DNA of 20,000 nucleotides from an uncultured virus (IMG/VR IMGVR_UViG_3300017655_000263) (lineage: Duplodnaviria > Heunggongvirae > Uroviricota > Caudoviricetes): positions 54,945 through 74,944 of the IMG/VR virus record IMGVR_UViG_3300017655_000263; one strand, written 5' to 3'. The notes below the pieces were generated by a model, which had not been told where the DNA came from, ran no database searches, and saw nothing but the letters and a program-made list of their open reading frames with translations. Positions 1,412 through 14,835 of this stretch are shown one piece after another. Each line of letters begins with the position of its first letter. Position 1 is the first letter of the stretch. The translations under genes were made by a program, and so were the position numbers.

Positions 1412-1984
1412 TCAGCTTCCGAAATTCAGCCCCTTGGTGGGCAATAGTCGGCCGCGGAGCATGGTATTTAGCTCCTCAATTACCCTGTCTCGAACTAATT
1501 CATCTTCCTTGATATAGGCCAAGGTCATATGCGCTTTATAGCCCGGGAAAGTGTTGATGTGGGGGAGGAACTTCAGACGCTCGTTACACTCCTGGAGTTC
1601 CGGGGTGATAACAAGGTGGGCGACGATACAGTAGTAGGGTTCGTCTGCCTTGGGACTATCAAAATAGCCAACCTCGTCGATTTGCACGGTGGGCGGACAC
1701 ACATTGCCGCTATTGAGCACCTGCAATATGTGCTTCTGCATCTCGGGACCACTTCGCAATAGGCCATAGAGCAAGGTTACGTGTGGTTCTCCAGCAACTA
1801 TTCCCGTGGCATAGCTGGCCGGATCTTCATCAACATAGACCTCCTCCGGCTTGATGGCCTCGCTGACTCGCTTCCCCAGGTCTTCCGGGTCGATATCAAG
1901 CATGATGCAGCCGAGTCGGCCGATGTCATAACCCAAATTCTCATACATCGATATGAATTGATACGCACTGATTTGTTTCTCCAT
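1412..1984 (-). CDS. 2H phosphoesterase (Acb1/T4 gp57B-like or LigT-like)
   Basis: Two HxT motifs, EPHVTLLYGL and YKAHMTLAYIK; GGAGG SD. Confidence 0.8.
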   Translation of the reverse strand: MEKQISAYQFISMYENLGYDIGRLGCIMLDIDPEDLGKRVSEAIKPEEVYVDEDPASYATGIVAGEPHVTLLYGLLRSGPEMQKHILQVLNSGNVCPPTVQIDEVGYFDSPKADEPYYCIVAHLVITPELQECNERLKFLPHINTFPGYKAHMTLAYIKEDELVRDRVIEELNTMLRGRLLPTKGLNFGS

Positions 1985-4226: not shown

Positions 4227-4808
4227 TTAATAAGAAGTCTTGGCCTCGTTATAAGCCTCAACCACAAGCTTGAACATGTGGGTGTTGCCACCCTTGTCGG
4301 GGTGGTAAATCTTCACCATGCGTCGATATGCCGACTCAATCTCGTCCAGCGTTGCTTCGGGTGACACATCCAGGATGGTCCACCATCCGCTAGAGACTGA
4401 ACTACTATCTCCGGGAGGAAGAGCAGCAAAGCCGCGGAAAGCAGCGTCGACCATCTCTTTGGCCCCCCAACGATCCAACCCTCGTAAAGCCCCTACAGTT
4501 AACTCAAGAGCGTGGACATTGTCCTCAAGAAAAACCCACTTATCACAAGGCAGGCACCGTTGCTCACCATGAAGAGTGAAATAAACAGCGACACCGGTGT
4601 CGTGGATTTTTGGCTGTCTGGCAGAGATTTCGCCGTTCTTATTCAGAGCGGCATTAGAGCTAATGATAATGTCACTCGCTCCAAGTCGTTCGAGTTCTCG
4701 GGTCAGACCATTCCTGGCCTGGACCAATCCAGTTTGAAACTTGGAATATTGGGGATTCTGCTCCCGTGGCCAACCATCCGGCCACTGCAAGGGATAAGCT
4801 TCAGTCAC
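4227..4808 (-). CDS. J-domain (DnaJ-like) protein of prophage type
   Basis: C-terminal WWTILDV...YRRMVKIYHPDKGG J domain; N-terminal AYPLQWPDGWPR motif. Confidence 0.9.
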   Translation of the reverse strand: MTEAYPLQWPDGWPREQNPQYSKFQTGLVQARNGLTRELERLGASDIIISSNAALNKNGEISARQPKIHDTGVAVYFTLHGEQRCLPCDKWVFLEDNVHALELTVGALRGLDRWGAKEMVDAAFRGFAALPPGDSSSVSSGWWTILDVSPEATLDEIESAYRRMVKIYHPDKGGNTHMFKLVVEAYNEAKTSY

Positions 4809-4862
4809 TTGTGACCATCCTTTCTAGAGAGCTAAAAGAGGTTCTCTTTTCTGTTCTTGGAG

Positions 4863-5162
4863 TCAAAATAATCCAGGTTGGCTCACTTCTATTTCGGGAT
4901 GCAAGATCTCTTCGAACAGCTTTTCCAGCGAGAAGATATACAGGCAGGGTACGCCACCCACCATTGTCACAGCTACCTGCCGACTCTTGAGCTTGACACT
5001 CTCTCCGTTGAACCAGGCATAGTTGCCGACGTTGGCACTGAGGTGAAGTGATCCGATACTCATGATGCCCGACGCTGTGTACTCGACCGTATCACCCCTG
5101 AGTGCGTATGGACTCAACCAACGCTTTACTTCCTGTTTGGCAATTGTCTCCAAAATGCCCAT
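4863..5162 (-). CDS. hypothetical protein
   Basis: GGAGGGTG SD before ATG at 5162 (MGILETIAKQ). Confidence 0.65.
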   Translation of the reverse strand: MGILETIAKQEVKRWLSPYALRGDTVEYTASGIMSIGSLHLSANVGNYAWFNGESVKLKSRQVAVTMVGGVPCLYIFSLEKLFEEILHPEIEVSQPGLF

Positions 5163-5164
5163 TA

Positions 5165-5750
5165 TCACCCTCCGTATTAGAACCAATCCCGATGACTAGC
5201 TCTAGGCGAAGGGTGACGTTAGAACGCCGTATATCCTTTCATCAGAATTAGAGGGAGAGCAGCCAAGTAGCCACCCTCCCTCACGTCTCTCCACGAGACC
5301 CTGCCGGATCAACGGACACGAACCGCATGGTTCAAACAACGCCCGGAGATTCTTGTCTCCTCTCCGAGTCTCGCAAGAAAACGGAGACCTCCTGGCCCAG
5401 CTGGGGGAGCAATGGCCGGAGGTCTCCTCTTGCTCACGAAACCTTCAATCGCTCATCGAAGAGCTGGGACGCTTGGAGCATGGATAAGACCCCTTCGCCA
5501 AAAGCCAGCCTCTTCGATCAACGATCGAGGCTCAATCCGTCTCAGAAGAACAGGAGATGTGAGAAAAATTAGCAAAAACCCACACCTAAAGGCCTGTCCT
5601 TCTGGGAAGAATCGAGACTATCCCCTCAACTCATCGCAGGAAGTTTAAAACCGACGCCGAAGACGCCGACGCCAGCATATTGGGTATTTTGCTGCTTCCA
5701 ACGAAGGTTGAGAGGTTAAATCGATACCCCAGCCGAAGCTGAGGGGACAA
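5165..5750 (-). ncRNA. candidate large structured RNA domain
   Basis: Many helices whose mismatches become G-U pairs on the minus strand (5543-5604, 5373-5433, 5251-5282, long-range 5491-5508 with 5196-5213); cUUCGg loops at 5651-5670 and 5727-5746; no minus-strand ORF of 60 aa or more. Confidence 0.6.
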
Positions 5751-5762
5751 TCTCGATCATTT

Positions 5763-5971
5763 GTCATGAATCTCAGTGAGGGGGCAGGAGTTGCCGAGAT
5801 GCCATTTACGCACATACGCTGAGAGGTACGCTATTGCAACTCGTAAAGTCACCTGCATTACTGGATCTCCGTCCCCAGCACCGCGGCCGAAGCTTGACCT
5901 CGCCGGCTCGAGCCGGCATGAGTTGCGGCGTGTCTATCTGCTTTGCACCACCCCTCACTTAGATTCATGAC
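5763..5971 (-). ncRNA. tRNA(Leu)-like RNA with expanded anticodon and T loops
   Basis: 21-bp closing stem with 1 mismatch; TGAGGGG TG GTG..TAGA CAC G CCGC..GCGG, long variable arm, GCAGG TG[56 nt]CAACT CCTGC CCCCTCA. Confidence 0.55.
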
Positions 5972-5976
5972 TGTCA

Positions 5977-6192
5977 TCATCAAACCAACCCAGGGACTCT
6001 AGGATTCGAACCTAGGTGGACATTATTGATCCAGGCAATTTCGTTTCATTTCCATCTGCCTGTAGGTTGGAACTCCCTCAGATTGGAACTCGATCTAGCC
6101 GCCCTATAGATTCTCCCTACCAATCGTTACAAAGAATCCAAAGCTCACACTCGCCATCCCTGTGAATGTACCCCTGGGTCGGATTGATGACG
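5977..6192 (-). ncRNA. second tRNA-like RNA with canonical T arm
   Basis: Perfect T arm CTAGG-TTCGAAT-CCTAG (5999-6015) next to a long closing stem, CCGACCCAGGGG/TCCCTGGGTTGG plus TCATCAA/TTGATGA. Confidence 0.5.
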
Positions 6193-6220
6193 TATTTGCT
6201 TGTTCATGTGCTATACATTA

Positions 6221-6249
6221 CTTATACGCCTAATGCAATACTATGTCAA
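6221..6249 (-). promoter_or_regulatory. promoter P3 (TTGACA-17-TATAAG) upstream of the non-coding cluster
   Basis: Minus GTATTGACAtagtattgcattaggcgTATAAG. Confidence 0.75.
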
Positions 6250-6275
6250 TACATCAATTTAGGCCCTGGACAGAA

Positions 6276-6299
6276 GAAAACCCCACCAAGAGGTGGGGC
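6276..6299 (-). terminator. Rho-independent terminator after relE
   Basis: Minus GCCCCACC-tctt-GGTGGGGT TTTC. Confidence 0.75.
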
Positions 6300-6306
6300 T
6301 GTGAGC

Positions 6307-6570
6307 CTACTTATAGACTTGTCGGCGATGAGCAATCTTGATCACGGCAATAATCAGTACGTCATTCTCGAACTCGCAGATAATCCGGTAGTCACCGACG
6401 CGGTAGCGCCAAAGACCTAAAAAGTCTGCTGTTAGGGCCTTTCCTCGCACTCGCGGGTTCTCAAGGCTACTAACCTCTTCGAGATATTTGATGATTCTTT
6501 CTTGCCAGGTGCGATCGATCTTGCGCAGCGCCTTCCGGGCTGCCGGTTCAAATTCAACTCGCCAAACCAA
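6307..6570 (-). CDS. relE: RelE/ParE-family toxin
   Basis: WRVEFEPAARKALRKI...GLWRYRVGDYRIIC...IAHRRQVY; probable TTG start overlapping the antitoxin end. Confidence 0.9.
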   Translation of the reverse strand: MVWRVEFEPAARKALRKIDRTWQERIIKYLEEVSSLENPRVRGKALTADFLGLWRYRVGDYRIICEFENDVLIIAVIKIAHRRQVYK

Positions 6571-6781
6571 GCTCTCTCTTGACCTCCTCGAACGGAATCC
6601 TCTGGTTGCCTTCGGCGAGGATCGCCTGAGCATCCCTGATGTCTTCCTGGTCCTCTAGCCATTCAAGCAAGGCTTCCTGAGCAAGACTCTGCTTGTCACG
6701 ACCTGTTAAGTGGGCGAGTTCAGTCAGCTCATCGTCGATTTCGCTATCGATAAGGAGGGTTACTTTTCGTGTTGTTGCCAT
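6554..6781 (-). CDS. ribbon-helix-helix antitoxin (RelB/CopG-like)
   Basis: MATTRKVTLLIDSE...LEDQEDIRDA...IPFEEVKRELGL directly upstream of and overlapping relE; AAGGA SD. Confidence 0.85.
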   Translation of the reverse strand: MATTRKVTLLIDSEIDDELTELAHLTGRDKQSLAQEALLEWLEDQEDIRDAQAILAEGNQRIPFEEVKRELGLAS

Positions 6782-6830
6782 GTAGTGCCATCCTTTCGAG
6801 GTCACGCCTCCTTCTAATAGTAGCATCGGA

Positions 6831-7067
6831 TTAGAACAGTGAAGGCTGTTGCGGCTTCTCATCCATCTCCGCCAACTGGCGGGTGTGGTAAGCAATGTGA
6901 TTGCGTATCAACTGCATGGAAGTCACCAAAGCAAGCTGGTCGTCTCCACCGAAAGCGATCTCCCTGTCATAGTGACTCAAGGACTCAACACCACGCTCCT
7001 GCATGTCTGCAAGCCGCTGCCTACGTTCTTCGAGTTTGGCTACAATGTCCTCTCTGGTCTCTTTCAC
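6831..7067 (-). CDS. hypothetical protein
   Basis: 78 aa helical ORF in the gene run, ending QQPSLF. Confidence 0.6.
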   Translation of the reverse strand: MKETREDIVAKLEERRQRLADMQERGVESLSHYDREIAFGGDDQLALVTSMQLIRNHIAYHTRQLAEMDEKPQQPSLF

Positions 7068-10141: not shown

Positions 10142-10432
10142 TCAAGCCGTCAACAGCTCTGGATTGTCTTGAGCCGTCCCAATCACTCGCCCATACTCCA
10201 TACGCATTGACCTCAGTGAACGACCGTTTTCTCTCGTAATCCTGTCGCTGTTTCCCGCTCTAAACTCAACTCGATAGCCTGTATCAAGCCTGAAATCTTC
10301 ACCTTGTTCCACCACTTGATGAACATGACGGTAGCCGTCGCCGTTTATCCATGTAATCGAAAACTCAAGCACGTCACCGGTAAAGACCTCAGTCCCAGTC
10401 TTATCTCTGAACCCTGTATTTACTCGCTGCAT
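10142..10432 (-). CDS. YopX-family-like protein
   Basis: TGFRDKTGTEVFTGDVL and VIGTAQDNPELL match YopX signatures (TGLKDKNGKEIYEGDI...VIGNIYENPELL); ATG at 10432. Confidence 0.8.
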   Translation of the reverse strand: MQRVNTGFRDKTGTEVFTGDVLEFSITWINGDGYRHVHQVVEQGEDFRLDTGYRVEFRAGNSDRITRENGRSLRSMRMEYGRVIGTAQDNPELLTA

Positions 10433-10515
10433 AGACCCCCGTTCTAGCCTCTCGGCCGTATCGCTTATGCACTTCCGCCACTGGTACGAGCGCCCACCCG
10501 CTCGCCCACAACACA

Positions 10516-10713
10516 CTATTCTGGCTGAGCTTCCAGCTTCTCTAATACTTCGTCGCGTAATTTTTGAAGTTCTTCATACCTCTGGGATAGCTCTGCAGCC
10601 CTGTTGGCTATGGCCAGCCCCTCGTTTGTCAGGAAGACCGTCATGTCAGCAATAGCATCCATTCGCTTCTGATAGATGTCGGCTTCCATCTTCAATGATT
10701 CTTTATCATTCAT
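10516..10713 (-). CDS. small coiled-coil hypothetical protein
   Basis: GAGGTG SD, first gene behind P5. Confidence 0.7.
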   Translation of the reverse strand: MNDKESLKMEADIYQKRMDAIADMTVFLTNEGLAIANRAAELSQRYEELQKLRDEVLEKLEAQPE

Positions 10714-11614: not shown

Positions 11615-11812
11615 TTAGGTCTCCACGGTAATCACAATCAGCACCTGTTGTGCATTCTGGAATCGGATCATATGCGACTCACCCAATGTGTCACGCTTCT
11701 CGACGTAGTCACCTGGCACGGGTAAAAACCCCTGCTCCTTCATCAGGTCCATCATGGCCTCAACCACCTCGGCCACTGCCTGGGTCTCAAGTTTTGGATC
11801 CATGTTCATCAC
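11615..11812 (-). CDS. hypothetical protein
   Basis: AGGAGGTG SD, 65 aa. Confidence 0.7.
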   Translation of the reverse strand: MMNMDPKLETQAVAEVVEAMMDLMKEQGFLPVPGDYVEKRDTLGESHMIRFQNAQQVLIVITVET

Positions 11813-12189
11813 CTCCTAGGGATTGATTGTGTGTACTTTCTGTACTGCTCCTCTCACTAATTCCATCCCCCTTTTCGACTCCACTGAGTTGGCAAAAACC
11901 GCAGTACCCAACGACCACCACGACACCCCCGGATCGCCGCTCTAGCCCCTGTAAAGACCGCCCCAGCCCATCATTTTTGCCAACGGACTACCACTGATCA
12001 TGAGAAGAACAGAAAGAACACACCCCGCTCGCAAGCCCTCTGGTATCGATTATTTCGACTCTTCGACAGTTCGACTAACACTCACCCCGACCCTTCAGGA
12101 TCTCCAATTACTTCACACGCTCCCTGGAGCGATTGCGGATGAGCAATCGCGTATCGGCCATGAAGGCAGGAGCAACCGCAGCGGAGCGC

Positions 12190-12966: not shown

Positions 12967-13698
12967 AGAGATCTATCCTCCAAGATTATTGTGTGTGCTT
13001 TCTGCACGCTCTCCTGTCACCAAGTAATCCTTTGCGACCAGCAATCAATAATTTATTTATGACATGTAGCAGCCTCTATCTGGGAGAGCAAGCCGTCGCA
13101 TGTCCAGACACGGCCAGCCAACACCCGCACCTGACCTATCGCAACCCTCGACATTGAGGTGCTTGCCGGAGTCATTCGGGATAATGAGGAGAGCAGGAAG
13201 CACACCCCCTCCGGGAGCGAAACAGCTCCGACTCCACCACCAACGTCTTGCTTTGGTGTGCTATTCAAGCACGCCATTGCAAGAAGGACTCGGGAAACCT
13301 CCCAGGCCACATACCACCGCCACCTCGGACGGAAGAGGTAGCTTTGCTGCCTCGCTGTACAACGGTTGGGAGCGGCTCCACCCAAACCCGACCTCACCAC
13401 CCTGCTTCCTCGAAAGCAATTCACCCCCGCGGGATAACAACCACCTTCACCATCGGATCCCCGATTCATGGCCACTTCAAACCTCTACGCCTCCAGCAAC
13501 GCAGGCGCTTGAGGATGATGCACAGGCATCATCCGAATGAGCCGGTCACGGCACATCAGCATCCAGCATGGACAGACCACGCTGACCCGAGAGCCCCTGG
13601 CTCAATAGCCCACGGCAACAAACAAGGACGCCTCCAACGGAACCGCCCTTCACCAAAGACTCTTCGATTCTCATCCACCCTCTTCACCAGAACCCTGT

Positions 13699-14835
13699 TC
13701 AAAACAAGGAGTAGTCGGGCCCGATTTCCGGCAATCCCAGAAGATGGACATCGAGCCGCTTCTTGTGGGGATAGGCCAACATCGGATTCCGCCATACCTC
13801 ACCCATGATGGCGTTCGGGGTGTCGTGCACATCTTCCCTGGAGGCGTACCAGTAGGCGCTGGACCCCTGGGCTTTATGCGTGGTCGCAATCATCTTCTCT
13901 ACCCGGTTTGGATTGGTTGTGATCGTCAAAACCCTTGGTGCTTCAAACAAATTCACTTCCTCCGGCGTGAATCCGAGGGTCAGGTAGAACGGGTCTCTCG
14001 GATATTCGATGGCGAAATAGTTACCATAGCGGCGGATTTTGGAATACCAGTCCCGTCCCCCTTTACCGCCACTCTTGATCGTCTCCGTCCCGCGATCGAT
14101 CTCCAGGAACAGGGGAAAGATTCTGACATCAGGATCATCCTCACTCCCGGTTACCACTTGCACCAAGCAGAAACCGTCAGGGATAAACCCCTTGAACCGG
14201 GTCCGCTTCGAGAGCAGGTCATCGTCAAACCAGTTCAGCACCTTGGCGGCGCCGGTTCTGTCTGTGCCCCGGATGAGCGCGATGATGGCATCGTTGATCT
14301 CCAGCTGGTGATCAATACTCTGGTCGGCGAACTGACGCAGTCGCGGCGTCCACCGGATCTCATCAACGAGGTCGGATCTTTCCTCGAGCATTGCCCGCAC
14401 TATCCTGGTCCCCTCCTTGGTCAGAATGTTGACCGGTGCCCGGACGATGTTTCCTGTGGTCTTGCCCGTCGCCTTGTCCCTGGTCCGGCTGGTCTGGAAG
14501 ACCATCATCCTCTCGATCAGCCTCGACTCGAACAGGCGCTTCAACGACAGGTCGGCGGCGTCCTTCGCCCCCGCTTCGCTGTAGATCTTCTTGTGACTGT
14601 TTATCGTCCCCCGGAACAGCAGATCCGCTATCTGGAGATTGGTGAGGAAGCGGTGCCTGTTCAAGGCCAGCAATATATCCTCCCCGGCCCGGATCGCCTG
14701 CAAGGGCCACACCTTGGCCACCAGCTCCTCCTTGAGGACGACGCGGCCCTGGCGTGACTTCTTCTCCCGCTTCGTCGTCGAGGAAGAATCCTCCTTCATC
14801 GTCTGCTGTATCGTCGTCGGGGAAGCCATAGTCAT
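13699..14835 (-). CDS. replication-relaxation family protein (Replic_Relax / MOBC-like relaxase)
   Basis: LNRHRFLTNLQIADLLF HTH-like region, DHQLEIND, IPDGFCLV and LFLEIDRGTE PD-(D/E)xK-type motifs. Confidence 0.85.
   Translation of the reverse strand: MTMASPTTIQQTMKEDSSSTTKREKKSRQGRVVLKEELVAKVWPLQAIRAGEDILLALNRHRFLTNLQIADLLFRGTINSHKKIYSEAGAKDAADLSLKRLFESRLIERMMVFQTSRTRDKATGKTTGNIVRAPVNILTKEGTRIVRAMLEERSDLVDEIRWTPRLRQFADQSIDHQLEINDAIIALIRGTDRTGAAKVLNWFDDDLLSKRTRFKGFIPDGFCLVQVVTGSEDDPDVRIFPLFLEIDRGTETIKSGGKGGRDWYSKIRRYGNYFAIEYPRDPFYLTLGFTPEEVNLFEAPRVLTITTNPNRVEKMIATTHKAQGSSAYWYASREDVHDTPNAIMGEVWRNPMLAYPHKKRLDVHLLGLPEIGPDYSLF

Follow-up and report, generated by a model that had tools for sequence, protein, structure and literature searches.

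Location and coding content of the stretch

The stretch described here covers positions 5164-6249 of the minus strand (genome 60109-61193) in a 20-kb window, which forms the right end of a 74.9-kb record of an uncultured virus (IMG/VR IMGVR_UViG_3300017655_000263); coordinates are those of the window unless marked genome. About 1.05 kb without a credible gene lies here between a gene of the ParE/RelE type and P0001, a gene of 99 amino acids. We conclude that this stretch, called the cluster below, very probably encodes a genuine series of structured non-coding RNAs driven by a promoter. Phage structural genes (capsid, portal and protease) stand on one record with plasmid or transfer genes (ParA, a Rep-O-like protein, a relaxase and a coupling protein), and the element is a phage-plasmid, as had been guessed in a preliminary description of this DNA. 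The element also encodes an orthologue of Ro60, Rsr, whose operon has several parts in common with the cluster.

The cluster begins behind an antitoxin/ParE-RelE pair. The terminator and the promoter (P3) claimed earlier in front of it can both be recognised: a terminator-like hairpin is present behind the ParE/RelE gene, and the two hexamers of P3, TTGACA and TATAAG, are read directly at a spacing of 17 nucleotides (nt). P3 is missing from our consensus promoter scan because the rule of the scan demands T at the last -10 position.

Open reading frames (ORFs) inside 5165-6249 reach at most 56 amino acids on the minus strand and 81 on the plus strand. None of the four ORFs tested from the stretch has a match in Pfam or PHROG, and a search of 5.8 billion proteins returned no homologue of the 81-residue plus-strand ORF. 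A hidden protein gene was discarded on these results, which bear out the earlier remark that the minus strand holds no convincing gene here. A retron was rejected as well, since no reverse-transcriptase domain occurs among the 89 ORFs scanned, and Rfam found no group I or II intron, riboswitch or ribozyme.

Structured modules and their closing stems

In the direction of the promoter, the cluster comprises unit 1, unit 2, a Y-shaped element X' and a row of further hairpins (Table 1). Units 1 and 2 have terminal stems formed by their own 5' and 3' ends. When these stems, each of 21 base pairs (bp), are compared in register, 12 pairs are identical, 3 differ in one strand and 6 in both, and five of the six two-sided changes remain Watson-Crick pairs. 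One position per stem is non-canonical: the 5' strand of unit 1 bears AAUCCGACC with a U.U mismatch alongside, and that of unit 2 bears UCUAAG with an A.G mismatch. The two stems are paralogous handles around unrelated interiors, and we suppose that each unit would consist of a handle plus a cargo, the 21-bp stem being paralogous and the interior different.

The preliminary description had proposed two tRNA-like modules and three self-closed units, and each proposal holds in part. Unit 1 carries a perfect T-arm beside the 3' strand of its handle, whereas unit 2 has neither a T-arm nor any other tRNA feature; ARAGORN finds no tRNA in the window and Rfam reports none. Units 1 and 2 are closed by their 21-bp stems, but the third part (about 5750-5165) is made of separate hairpins. 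In both the minimum free energy (MFE) and the centroid structures, the last 590 nt form a row of separate hairpins and elements rather than one closed domain, beginning with X' and ending with a hairpin that pairs with the ribosome-binding site of P0001.

P0001 lies directly downstream and, with a neighbouring DnaJ-domain gene, heads an operon. Four homologues of P0001 (P0002-P0005; 65-77% identity) were found in a large protein collection, and no family could be assigned from Pfam or PHROG. An AlphaFold model built from the five sequences has a pLDDT of 50, too poor for a fold search. Searches with P0001 and its alignment found no relative in viral or metagenome contigs.

Table 1. Coordinates of the cluster, its flanks and the corresponding parts of the Y-RNA/rsr operon (L021, locus of the same record)
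Feature	Coordinates	Strand	Description
ParE_toxin gene (ParE/RelE type)	6307-6633	-	antitoxin/ParE-RelE pair upstream of the cluster
Intrinsic-terminator-like hairpin	6279-6300	-	9-pair stem with 6 G-C pairs, T-rich tail; ends the antitoxin/ParE-RelE pair
Promoter P3	6213-6249	-	TTGACA 6249-6244, 17-nt spacer, TATAAG 6226-6221, then conserved TAAKRTAT stretch
Unit 1	5975-6192	-	21-bp closing stem, multi-branched core, T-arm beside 3' strand
Unit 1 closing-stem inverted repeat I4	6190-6172/5995-5977		19 nt, 89%
T-arm of unit 1	5999-6015	-	CUAGG-UUCGAAU-CCUAG, perfect; 1-2 bases before 3' strand of handle
Unit 2	5763-5971	-	closing stem of 21 bp, a paralogue of the unit 1 stem; interior poorly defined
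Unit 2 closing-stem inverted repeat	5971-5951/5783-5763		21 nt, 95%
Element X'	5611-5757	-	Y-shaped; outer stem, cUUCGg hairpin, linker, CCUCUCAAC...GUUGAGGGG hairpin with long tip; z = -6.0
X' outer-stem inverted repeat	5757-5737/5631-5611		21 nt, 86%
Long hairpin	5543-5604	-	U-rich loop; in MFE and centroid structures; unchanged in the 96% relative
Multi-branched domain	5311-5541	-	two imperfect hairpins of about 28-30 bp rich in G-U pairs; within the 595-nt part of z = -10.0
Three short hairpins	5233-5299	-	include GAGGGAGGGUGGCU...GCUCUCCCUC at 5282-5251
Last hairpin	5164-5217	-	UCACCCUUC pairs with GGAGGGUGA, ribosome-binding site (GGAGGG) of P0001
P0001	4863-5162	-	99-amino-acid gene directly downstream; start codon 5162-5160
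Promoter-block copies	genome 31209, 49166, 52073, 61170 (= window 6226)	-	one directly before the Y-RNA/rsr operon
Three tandem Y-RNA-like units	L021:12700-13138 (genome 48700-49138)	-	one common handle; within 540 nt before rsr
Element X	L021:12600-12698	-	Y-shaped; between last Y RNA and rsr start codon; z = -3.2

Folding strength and strand

The whole stretch folds with -465 kcal/mol on the minus strand and with -366 kcal/mol on the plus strand. The z-scores against dinucleotide shuffles were computed for three parts, i.e. unit 1, unit 2 and the 595-nt part 5165-5759, the third domain. They amount to -4.7, -4.3 and -10.0 on the minus strand, so that the folding beats shuffled controls, and to -2.9, -3.9 and -3.8 on the plus strand. 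The three lowest-energy windows among 747 sliding 300-nt windows along the 75-kb record fall in 5157-5656, and the stretch accounts for four of the five longest inverted repeats in the 20-kb window.

The minus-strand MFE structure contains 57 G-U pairs and no A.C 1x1 mismatch, versus 19 G-U pairs and 8 A.C or C.A mismatches on the plus strand. CTTCGG occurs three times on the minus strand of the stretch, and two of these sites are clean cUUCGg hairpin loops. The earlier observations that mismatches resolve as G-U pairs and that cUUCGg loops are read on the minus strand are both confirmed. The further claim that structure favours the strand of the promoter is borne out by the third domain (z of -10.0 versus -3.8) and by the G-U counts, but the bias is neither unique to the stretch nor present in unit 2.

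The hairpins might instead act in single-stranded DNA, as a leading-region single-strand promoter, a priming site or an origin. A relaxase and a coupling protein are encoded 8 kb upstream, all genes run in one direction, and the inverted repeats are available on both strands, with DNA parameters still favouring the minus strand (-202 versus -169 kcal/mol). A leading-region promoter should, however, fold in the template strand, and the better folder is the sense strand, whose 57 G-U pairs would be C.A mismatches in the template strand. The T-arm and the UUCG loops are motifs of RNA, the stretch follows a normal double-strand promoter, and a contig from an RNA library covers it. We therefore regard a DNA-level element as very improbable.

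Parts shared with the Y-RNA/rsr operon

The rsr gene (genome 47092-48573), on the same strand as the cluster, encodes the Ro60 orthologue with its TROVE and vWA_Ro60 domains. Among the three Y-RNA-like units before it, two match the Rfam family YrlA in the tRNA-like domain (42.3 and 40.5 bits, E of about 1e-7, below the 69-bit cut-off), and ARAGORN calls parts of these rsr-proximal units as tRNA-Asn and an odd tRNA. Y-RNA arrays before rsr are a known kind of arrangement; as Chen et al. (2014, PMC4201824) describe, Y RNAs arise in polycistronic precursors, and species have several kinds of them. In element X, which follows the last Y RNA, two mutually exclusive folds are possible around CCCUUCA, CCUCUCAAC and GUUGAGGGG; X may regulate rsr or mark a processing site.

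Several parts of this operon recur in the cluster. The promoter block TTGACA-17-TATAAGTAAG.TAT has four copies in the 75-kb record, all on the minus strand. The T-arm 11-mer GGTTCGA[ATG]TCC is likewise found four times on both strands of the record (150 kb), three times in the Y RNAs and once in unit 1; its chance expectation in the stretch is about 0.0003. Of the 10-mer AGUGAGGGGU the record has two copies where 0.14 would be expected, one in the 5' handle strand of Y RNA b and the other in that of unit 2.

Element X' is a paralogue of X with a common layout of outer stem, cUUCGg hairpin, linker and CCUCUCAAC...GUUGAGGGG. In register, the 21 positions of their outer stems comprise 9 identical ones, 6 one-sided and 6 two-sided changes, with five of the latter still paired, and the UUCG hairpin adds one further compensatory pair. 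The strict core motif, CCTCTCAAC followed after a gap of at most 150 nt by GTTGAGGGG, is present in the record only at X and X'; the looser core CCTCTCA[AG]C alone has four sites, one of them in unit 2. The cluster and the rsr operon thus share an order of promoter, closed RNA modules, X and protein genes.

Other genes of the element point to RNA metabolism. An RNA ligase gene (PF09414; L021:9083-10357, minus strand) stands after rsr, a LigT-type 2H phosphoesterase is encoded at 1412-1984 (minus strand), and a metallophosphoesterase and an R2K ATP-grasp protein are encoded elsewhere. These four make up an RNA-repair kit of the element. A review of jumbo phages places TROVE proteins with a tRNA-like partner in phage RNA-repair kits (PMC7824862), and in a Thermus phage the gene for Ro60 is preceded by two Y-like RNAs that the protein binds (PMC12135203).

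Comparison with known RNA families

Rfam gives no match in the stretch at curated cut-offs and nothing for unit 1 alone (5960-6200) at E<=10, and the cluster remains unassignable to a known class, GOLLD and ROOL included, as the preliminary description had it. A tRNA or tmRNA identity was rejected, because ARAGORN finds no gene and Rfam no tRNA or tmRNA match at E<=10. Membership in YrlA (RF02553) was discarded likewise: the family has no match at E<=10, compared with a gathering cut-off of 69 bits, and the arm order is not permuted. The permuted order of YrlA is T-arm, closed acceptor hairpin and D-arm, and no D-arm (GCUCA...GAGC) was found in unit 1. Nor does the cluster belong to the Y-RNA family of the element itself. 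A covariance model of the three rsr-proximal units, R1, which scores 103-146 bits on its training units, matches only the T-arm.

What the cluster has in common with YrlA, the three units of the record included, is its T-arm sequence, its promoter type and, in unit 2, the AGUGAGGGGU stem motif. The cluster differs in having no D-arm, no closed acceptor hairpin and unpermuted arms, and in being scored neither by the Rfam YrlA model nor, as a unit, by R1.

The nearest architecture seems to be that of Yrn1 and Yrn2 of Deinococcus radiodurans. As far as the relevant passages of Chen et al. (2014, PMC4201824) describe them, Yrn1 has its arms in non-permuted order, and these RNAs share with unit 1 a long stem of the RNA's own ends and a non-permuted T-arm beside the 3' strand. 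Further points of likeness are the release of several RNAs from one precursor, which is proposed here for the cluster, and the location of a Ro60 gene on the same strand of the genome. The Yrn RNAs have no sequence match to the cluster, however. Unit 1 is also large, at about 218 nt, with three extra hairpins replacing a single anticodon-like arm; its distance from rsr is 11.5 kb, its GGUCCGA-type motif is only partial (UCCGAC), and its partnership with Rsr is a prediction from sequence. The likeness of unit 1 to Yrn1 is one of architecture, not of membership.

With GOLLD and ROOL, the cluster has in common that it is a large, ornate, promoter-driven RNA of a mobile element with tRNA-related neighbours; it differs in giving no Rfam match at E<=10 and in being a row of closed modules instead of one globular fold. 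The handles also resemble the processing stalks of rRNA operons and the RNase III sites of phage early transcripts, in being stems of about 20 bp made from module-flanking sequence within a polycistronic transcript; cleavage at the handles is only proposed here. Taken together, the modules appear to be, in kind, a variant of the Y-like RNAs of mobile elements and, in sequence, an orphan.

Relatives and other samples

A relative of 96% identity, from a leachate metagenome, runs colinear with positions 4303-7000, the match there being about 95%. Of the 692 positions in 5165-5856, 22 are changed, versus 89 of 1534 in the two flanking pieces (3.2% versus 5.8%; Fisher p = 0.008). Among the changes listed at promoter P3, the five at 6233-6239 all lie in the spacer and none in either hexamer. 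The relative swaps 5857-6184 (328 nt, unit 1 and the 5' part of unit 2) for 422 letters less than 80% alike, with colinear flanks. When its 23 substitutions in 5150-5860 are placed on the MFE structure, 10 are unpaired, 5 keep a pair and 8 break one; among the five are three next to each other, at 5260-5262, whose pairs persist as G-U wobbles on the minus strand. The pattern is mixed, and one close relative cannot settle it.

The swap bears on the possibility that the cluster is a long processed 5' leader, i.e. a cis-acting untranslated region of the P0001/DnaJ operon whose hairpins set stability, RNase III processing and translation and none of which acts in trans. There is no terminator between the cluster and P0001, the last hairpin pairs with the ribosome-binding site, and X holds the same position just before rsr; the near-perfect stems also resemble the RNase III sites of phage early transcripts. 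Yet any leader would need far less than a kilobase that holds a T-arm and a pair of paralogous closed modules, and the replacement of unit 1 in the relative, which keeps the rest, looks like an exchange of cargo and not like the tuning of a leader. A leader of this kind seems rather unlikely to us.

Searches for more distant relatives were negative. The stretch has no blastn match in plasmid and phage collections, and only itself is matched in its own record. Among 17 viral loci with the DnaJ-domain gene that neighbours the cluster, blastn gave only short matches at E of at least 1.9 and nhmmer none, and no blastn match at E<=0.1 was obtained in 15 viral loci with a relative of Rsr (at most 52% identity). 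The whole records of 32 related viral loci contain only chance matches of 14-28 nt to the stretch. DNA-pattern searches were empty for the T-arm plus stem of unit 1, for the 5' half of X in metagenomes and for a 25-mer of the third domain; the core of X gave seven matches, none in the context of X, five of which resemble terminator hairpins. The Rfam analysis of loci with a relative of Rsr covered 5 of these 15 viral ones and 6 of 14 from genomes. As a separate observation, at loci L047, L055 and L057, from metagenome-assembled genomes, Rsr homologues of about 50% identity are encoded behind some 20-30 tRNA genes on the same strand, and these tRNA arrays resemble the large tRNA regions of phages or prophages.

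Such an orphan might be nothing but functionless, decaying or selfish repeats, that is, remnants of duplicated Y-RNA or tRNA genes, or palindromes. The cluster occurs in none of the 32 related viral records, the plasmid and phage collections hold no match, and the interior of unit 2 is ill-defined, all of which would fit. Against this, the stretch is about half as diverged as its flanks in the relative, compensatory changes keep the stems between paralogues, and z reaches -10. We consider that decay has only a very slim chance of being the explanation.

A soil metatranscriptome contains one 227-nt contig identical to 5933-6159 (units 1-2), the sole coverage of 4300-7000 in that library, which hints at an abundant RNA. 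Two further runs, X9 and X7, include parts of the stretch alone and are identical to it there, which adds no information.

The block downstream of the relaxase consists of small genes in one direction, including an ArdC-like anti-restriction domain, a pentapeptide-repeat protein and toxin-antitoxin genes, and the cluster sits in it. These surroundings would fit tRNA-like and double-stranded-like modules that serve, independently of Ro60, as anti-defence decoys and soak up host nucleases or RNA sensors on entry of the plasmid or phage; the RNA-repair kit on the element and a cassette exchange between close relatives, which fits an arms race, point the same way. However, no known decoy family matches and no target can be named, and the motifs common with the Y-RNA operon point to Ro60 instead. 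A decoy function is, in our estimate, improbable.

Interpretation

The reading that we favour, tentatively and with somewhat less than even confidence, is that the modules are accessory handle-and-cargo RNAs of the Ro60/RNA-repair system of the element, released from a polycistronic precursor, with the last hairpin gating translation. P3 would drive a single minus-strand precursor containing the RNA modules, P0001 and the genes behind it. The long, near-perfect stems may serve as handles for a protein or as processing stalks of the RNase III type that release the modules, and the last hairpin would couple the translation of P0001 to the fate of the RNA. The modules themselves could be accessory partners or scaffolds in the quality-control and repair system of Rsr. 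The structure, the paralogy and the shared motifs were observed directly; from them we infer that the modules may bind Ro60, be processed and act in trans.

Several observations weigh against this reading or its parts. The minus strand is G-rich along the whole window, which accounts for part of the strand bias; in some coding 300-nt windows the raw strand difference is just as large, and unit 2 has z-scores without strand bias (-4.3 versus -3.9). The strand argument therefore rests on the z-scores of the third domain and unit 1. The interior of unit 2 has no stable centroid. At E<=10, Rfam lists eight weak matches over 4800-6500, all to unrelated families and none to tRNA, YrlA, Y_RNA, tmRNA, GOLLD or ROOL, and the T-arm hit of R1 (6016-5999) attains 8.4 bits with E = 2.

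The link to Rsr faces similar objections. Candidates for YrlA are taken from the same strand within 4 kb of rsr in the pertinent section of Chen et al. (2014, PMC4201824); the cluster lies on the rsr strand but 11.5 kb away, outside this limit. The Ro60 motif given there is GNCGAA, or CGAA in a bulge, with a GGUCCGA type in the terminal stem (PMC4201824, in the passages concerned). In the cluster it is at best partial, as UCCGAC (AAUCCGACC) in unit 1 only, and the local YrlA-like units do not have the motif either. The eight pair-breaking substitutions in the relative count on the same side, as does the low depth of the metatranscriptome contig (2.4), which leaves contaminating DNA as a possible source. 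True phylogenetic covariation is lacking because no homologue beyond the one at 96% identity was obtained.

A bolder version of the favoured reading is that the modules form a new handle-and-cargo class, with exchangeable cargo on a conserved 21-bp handle, accompanied by a new structured RNA of about 450 nt, and thereby extend Ro60 and RNA repair beyond the Y RNAs adjacent to rsr; we hold this to be doubtful. On this view, excised modules might even be circularised, because the module ends are held side by side and RNA-ligase genes are nearby. To our knowledge, the Y RNAs of bacteria and phages have so far been sought only right beside rsr. If larger partner RNAs distal to rsr do exist under the same promoter type, the set of RNAs for quality control and repair would be wider than thought, and an exchange of cassettes may tune it, as conflict between phage and host would lead one to expect. 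The cluster offers a compact, testable case, in which a single promoter, three module types and a candidate protein partner are all found on the same element.

Other features of the record

A CBASS-like set (L019:502-4993, plus strand) of a DncV-like cyclase, an E1/E2 fusion, a JAB protein and a SAVED-domain effector occupies the left end of the record and could be either the element's own or the host's. Elsewhere, in 300-nt windows at 13357-13756, 11757-12157 and 10157-10557, the folding of the minus strand is more stable than that of the plus strand by 34-45 kcal/mol, and an inverted repeat (11829-11850/12002-12023) was recorded with them. One of these minus-biased windows, which directly follows the relaxase gene, is a candidate for an oriT or for a further RNA.

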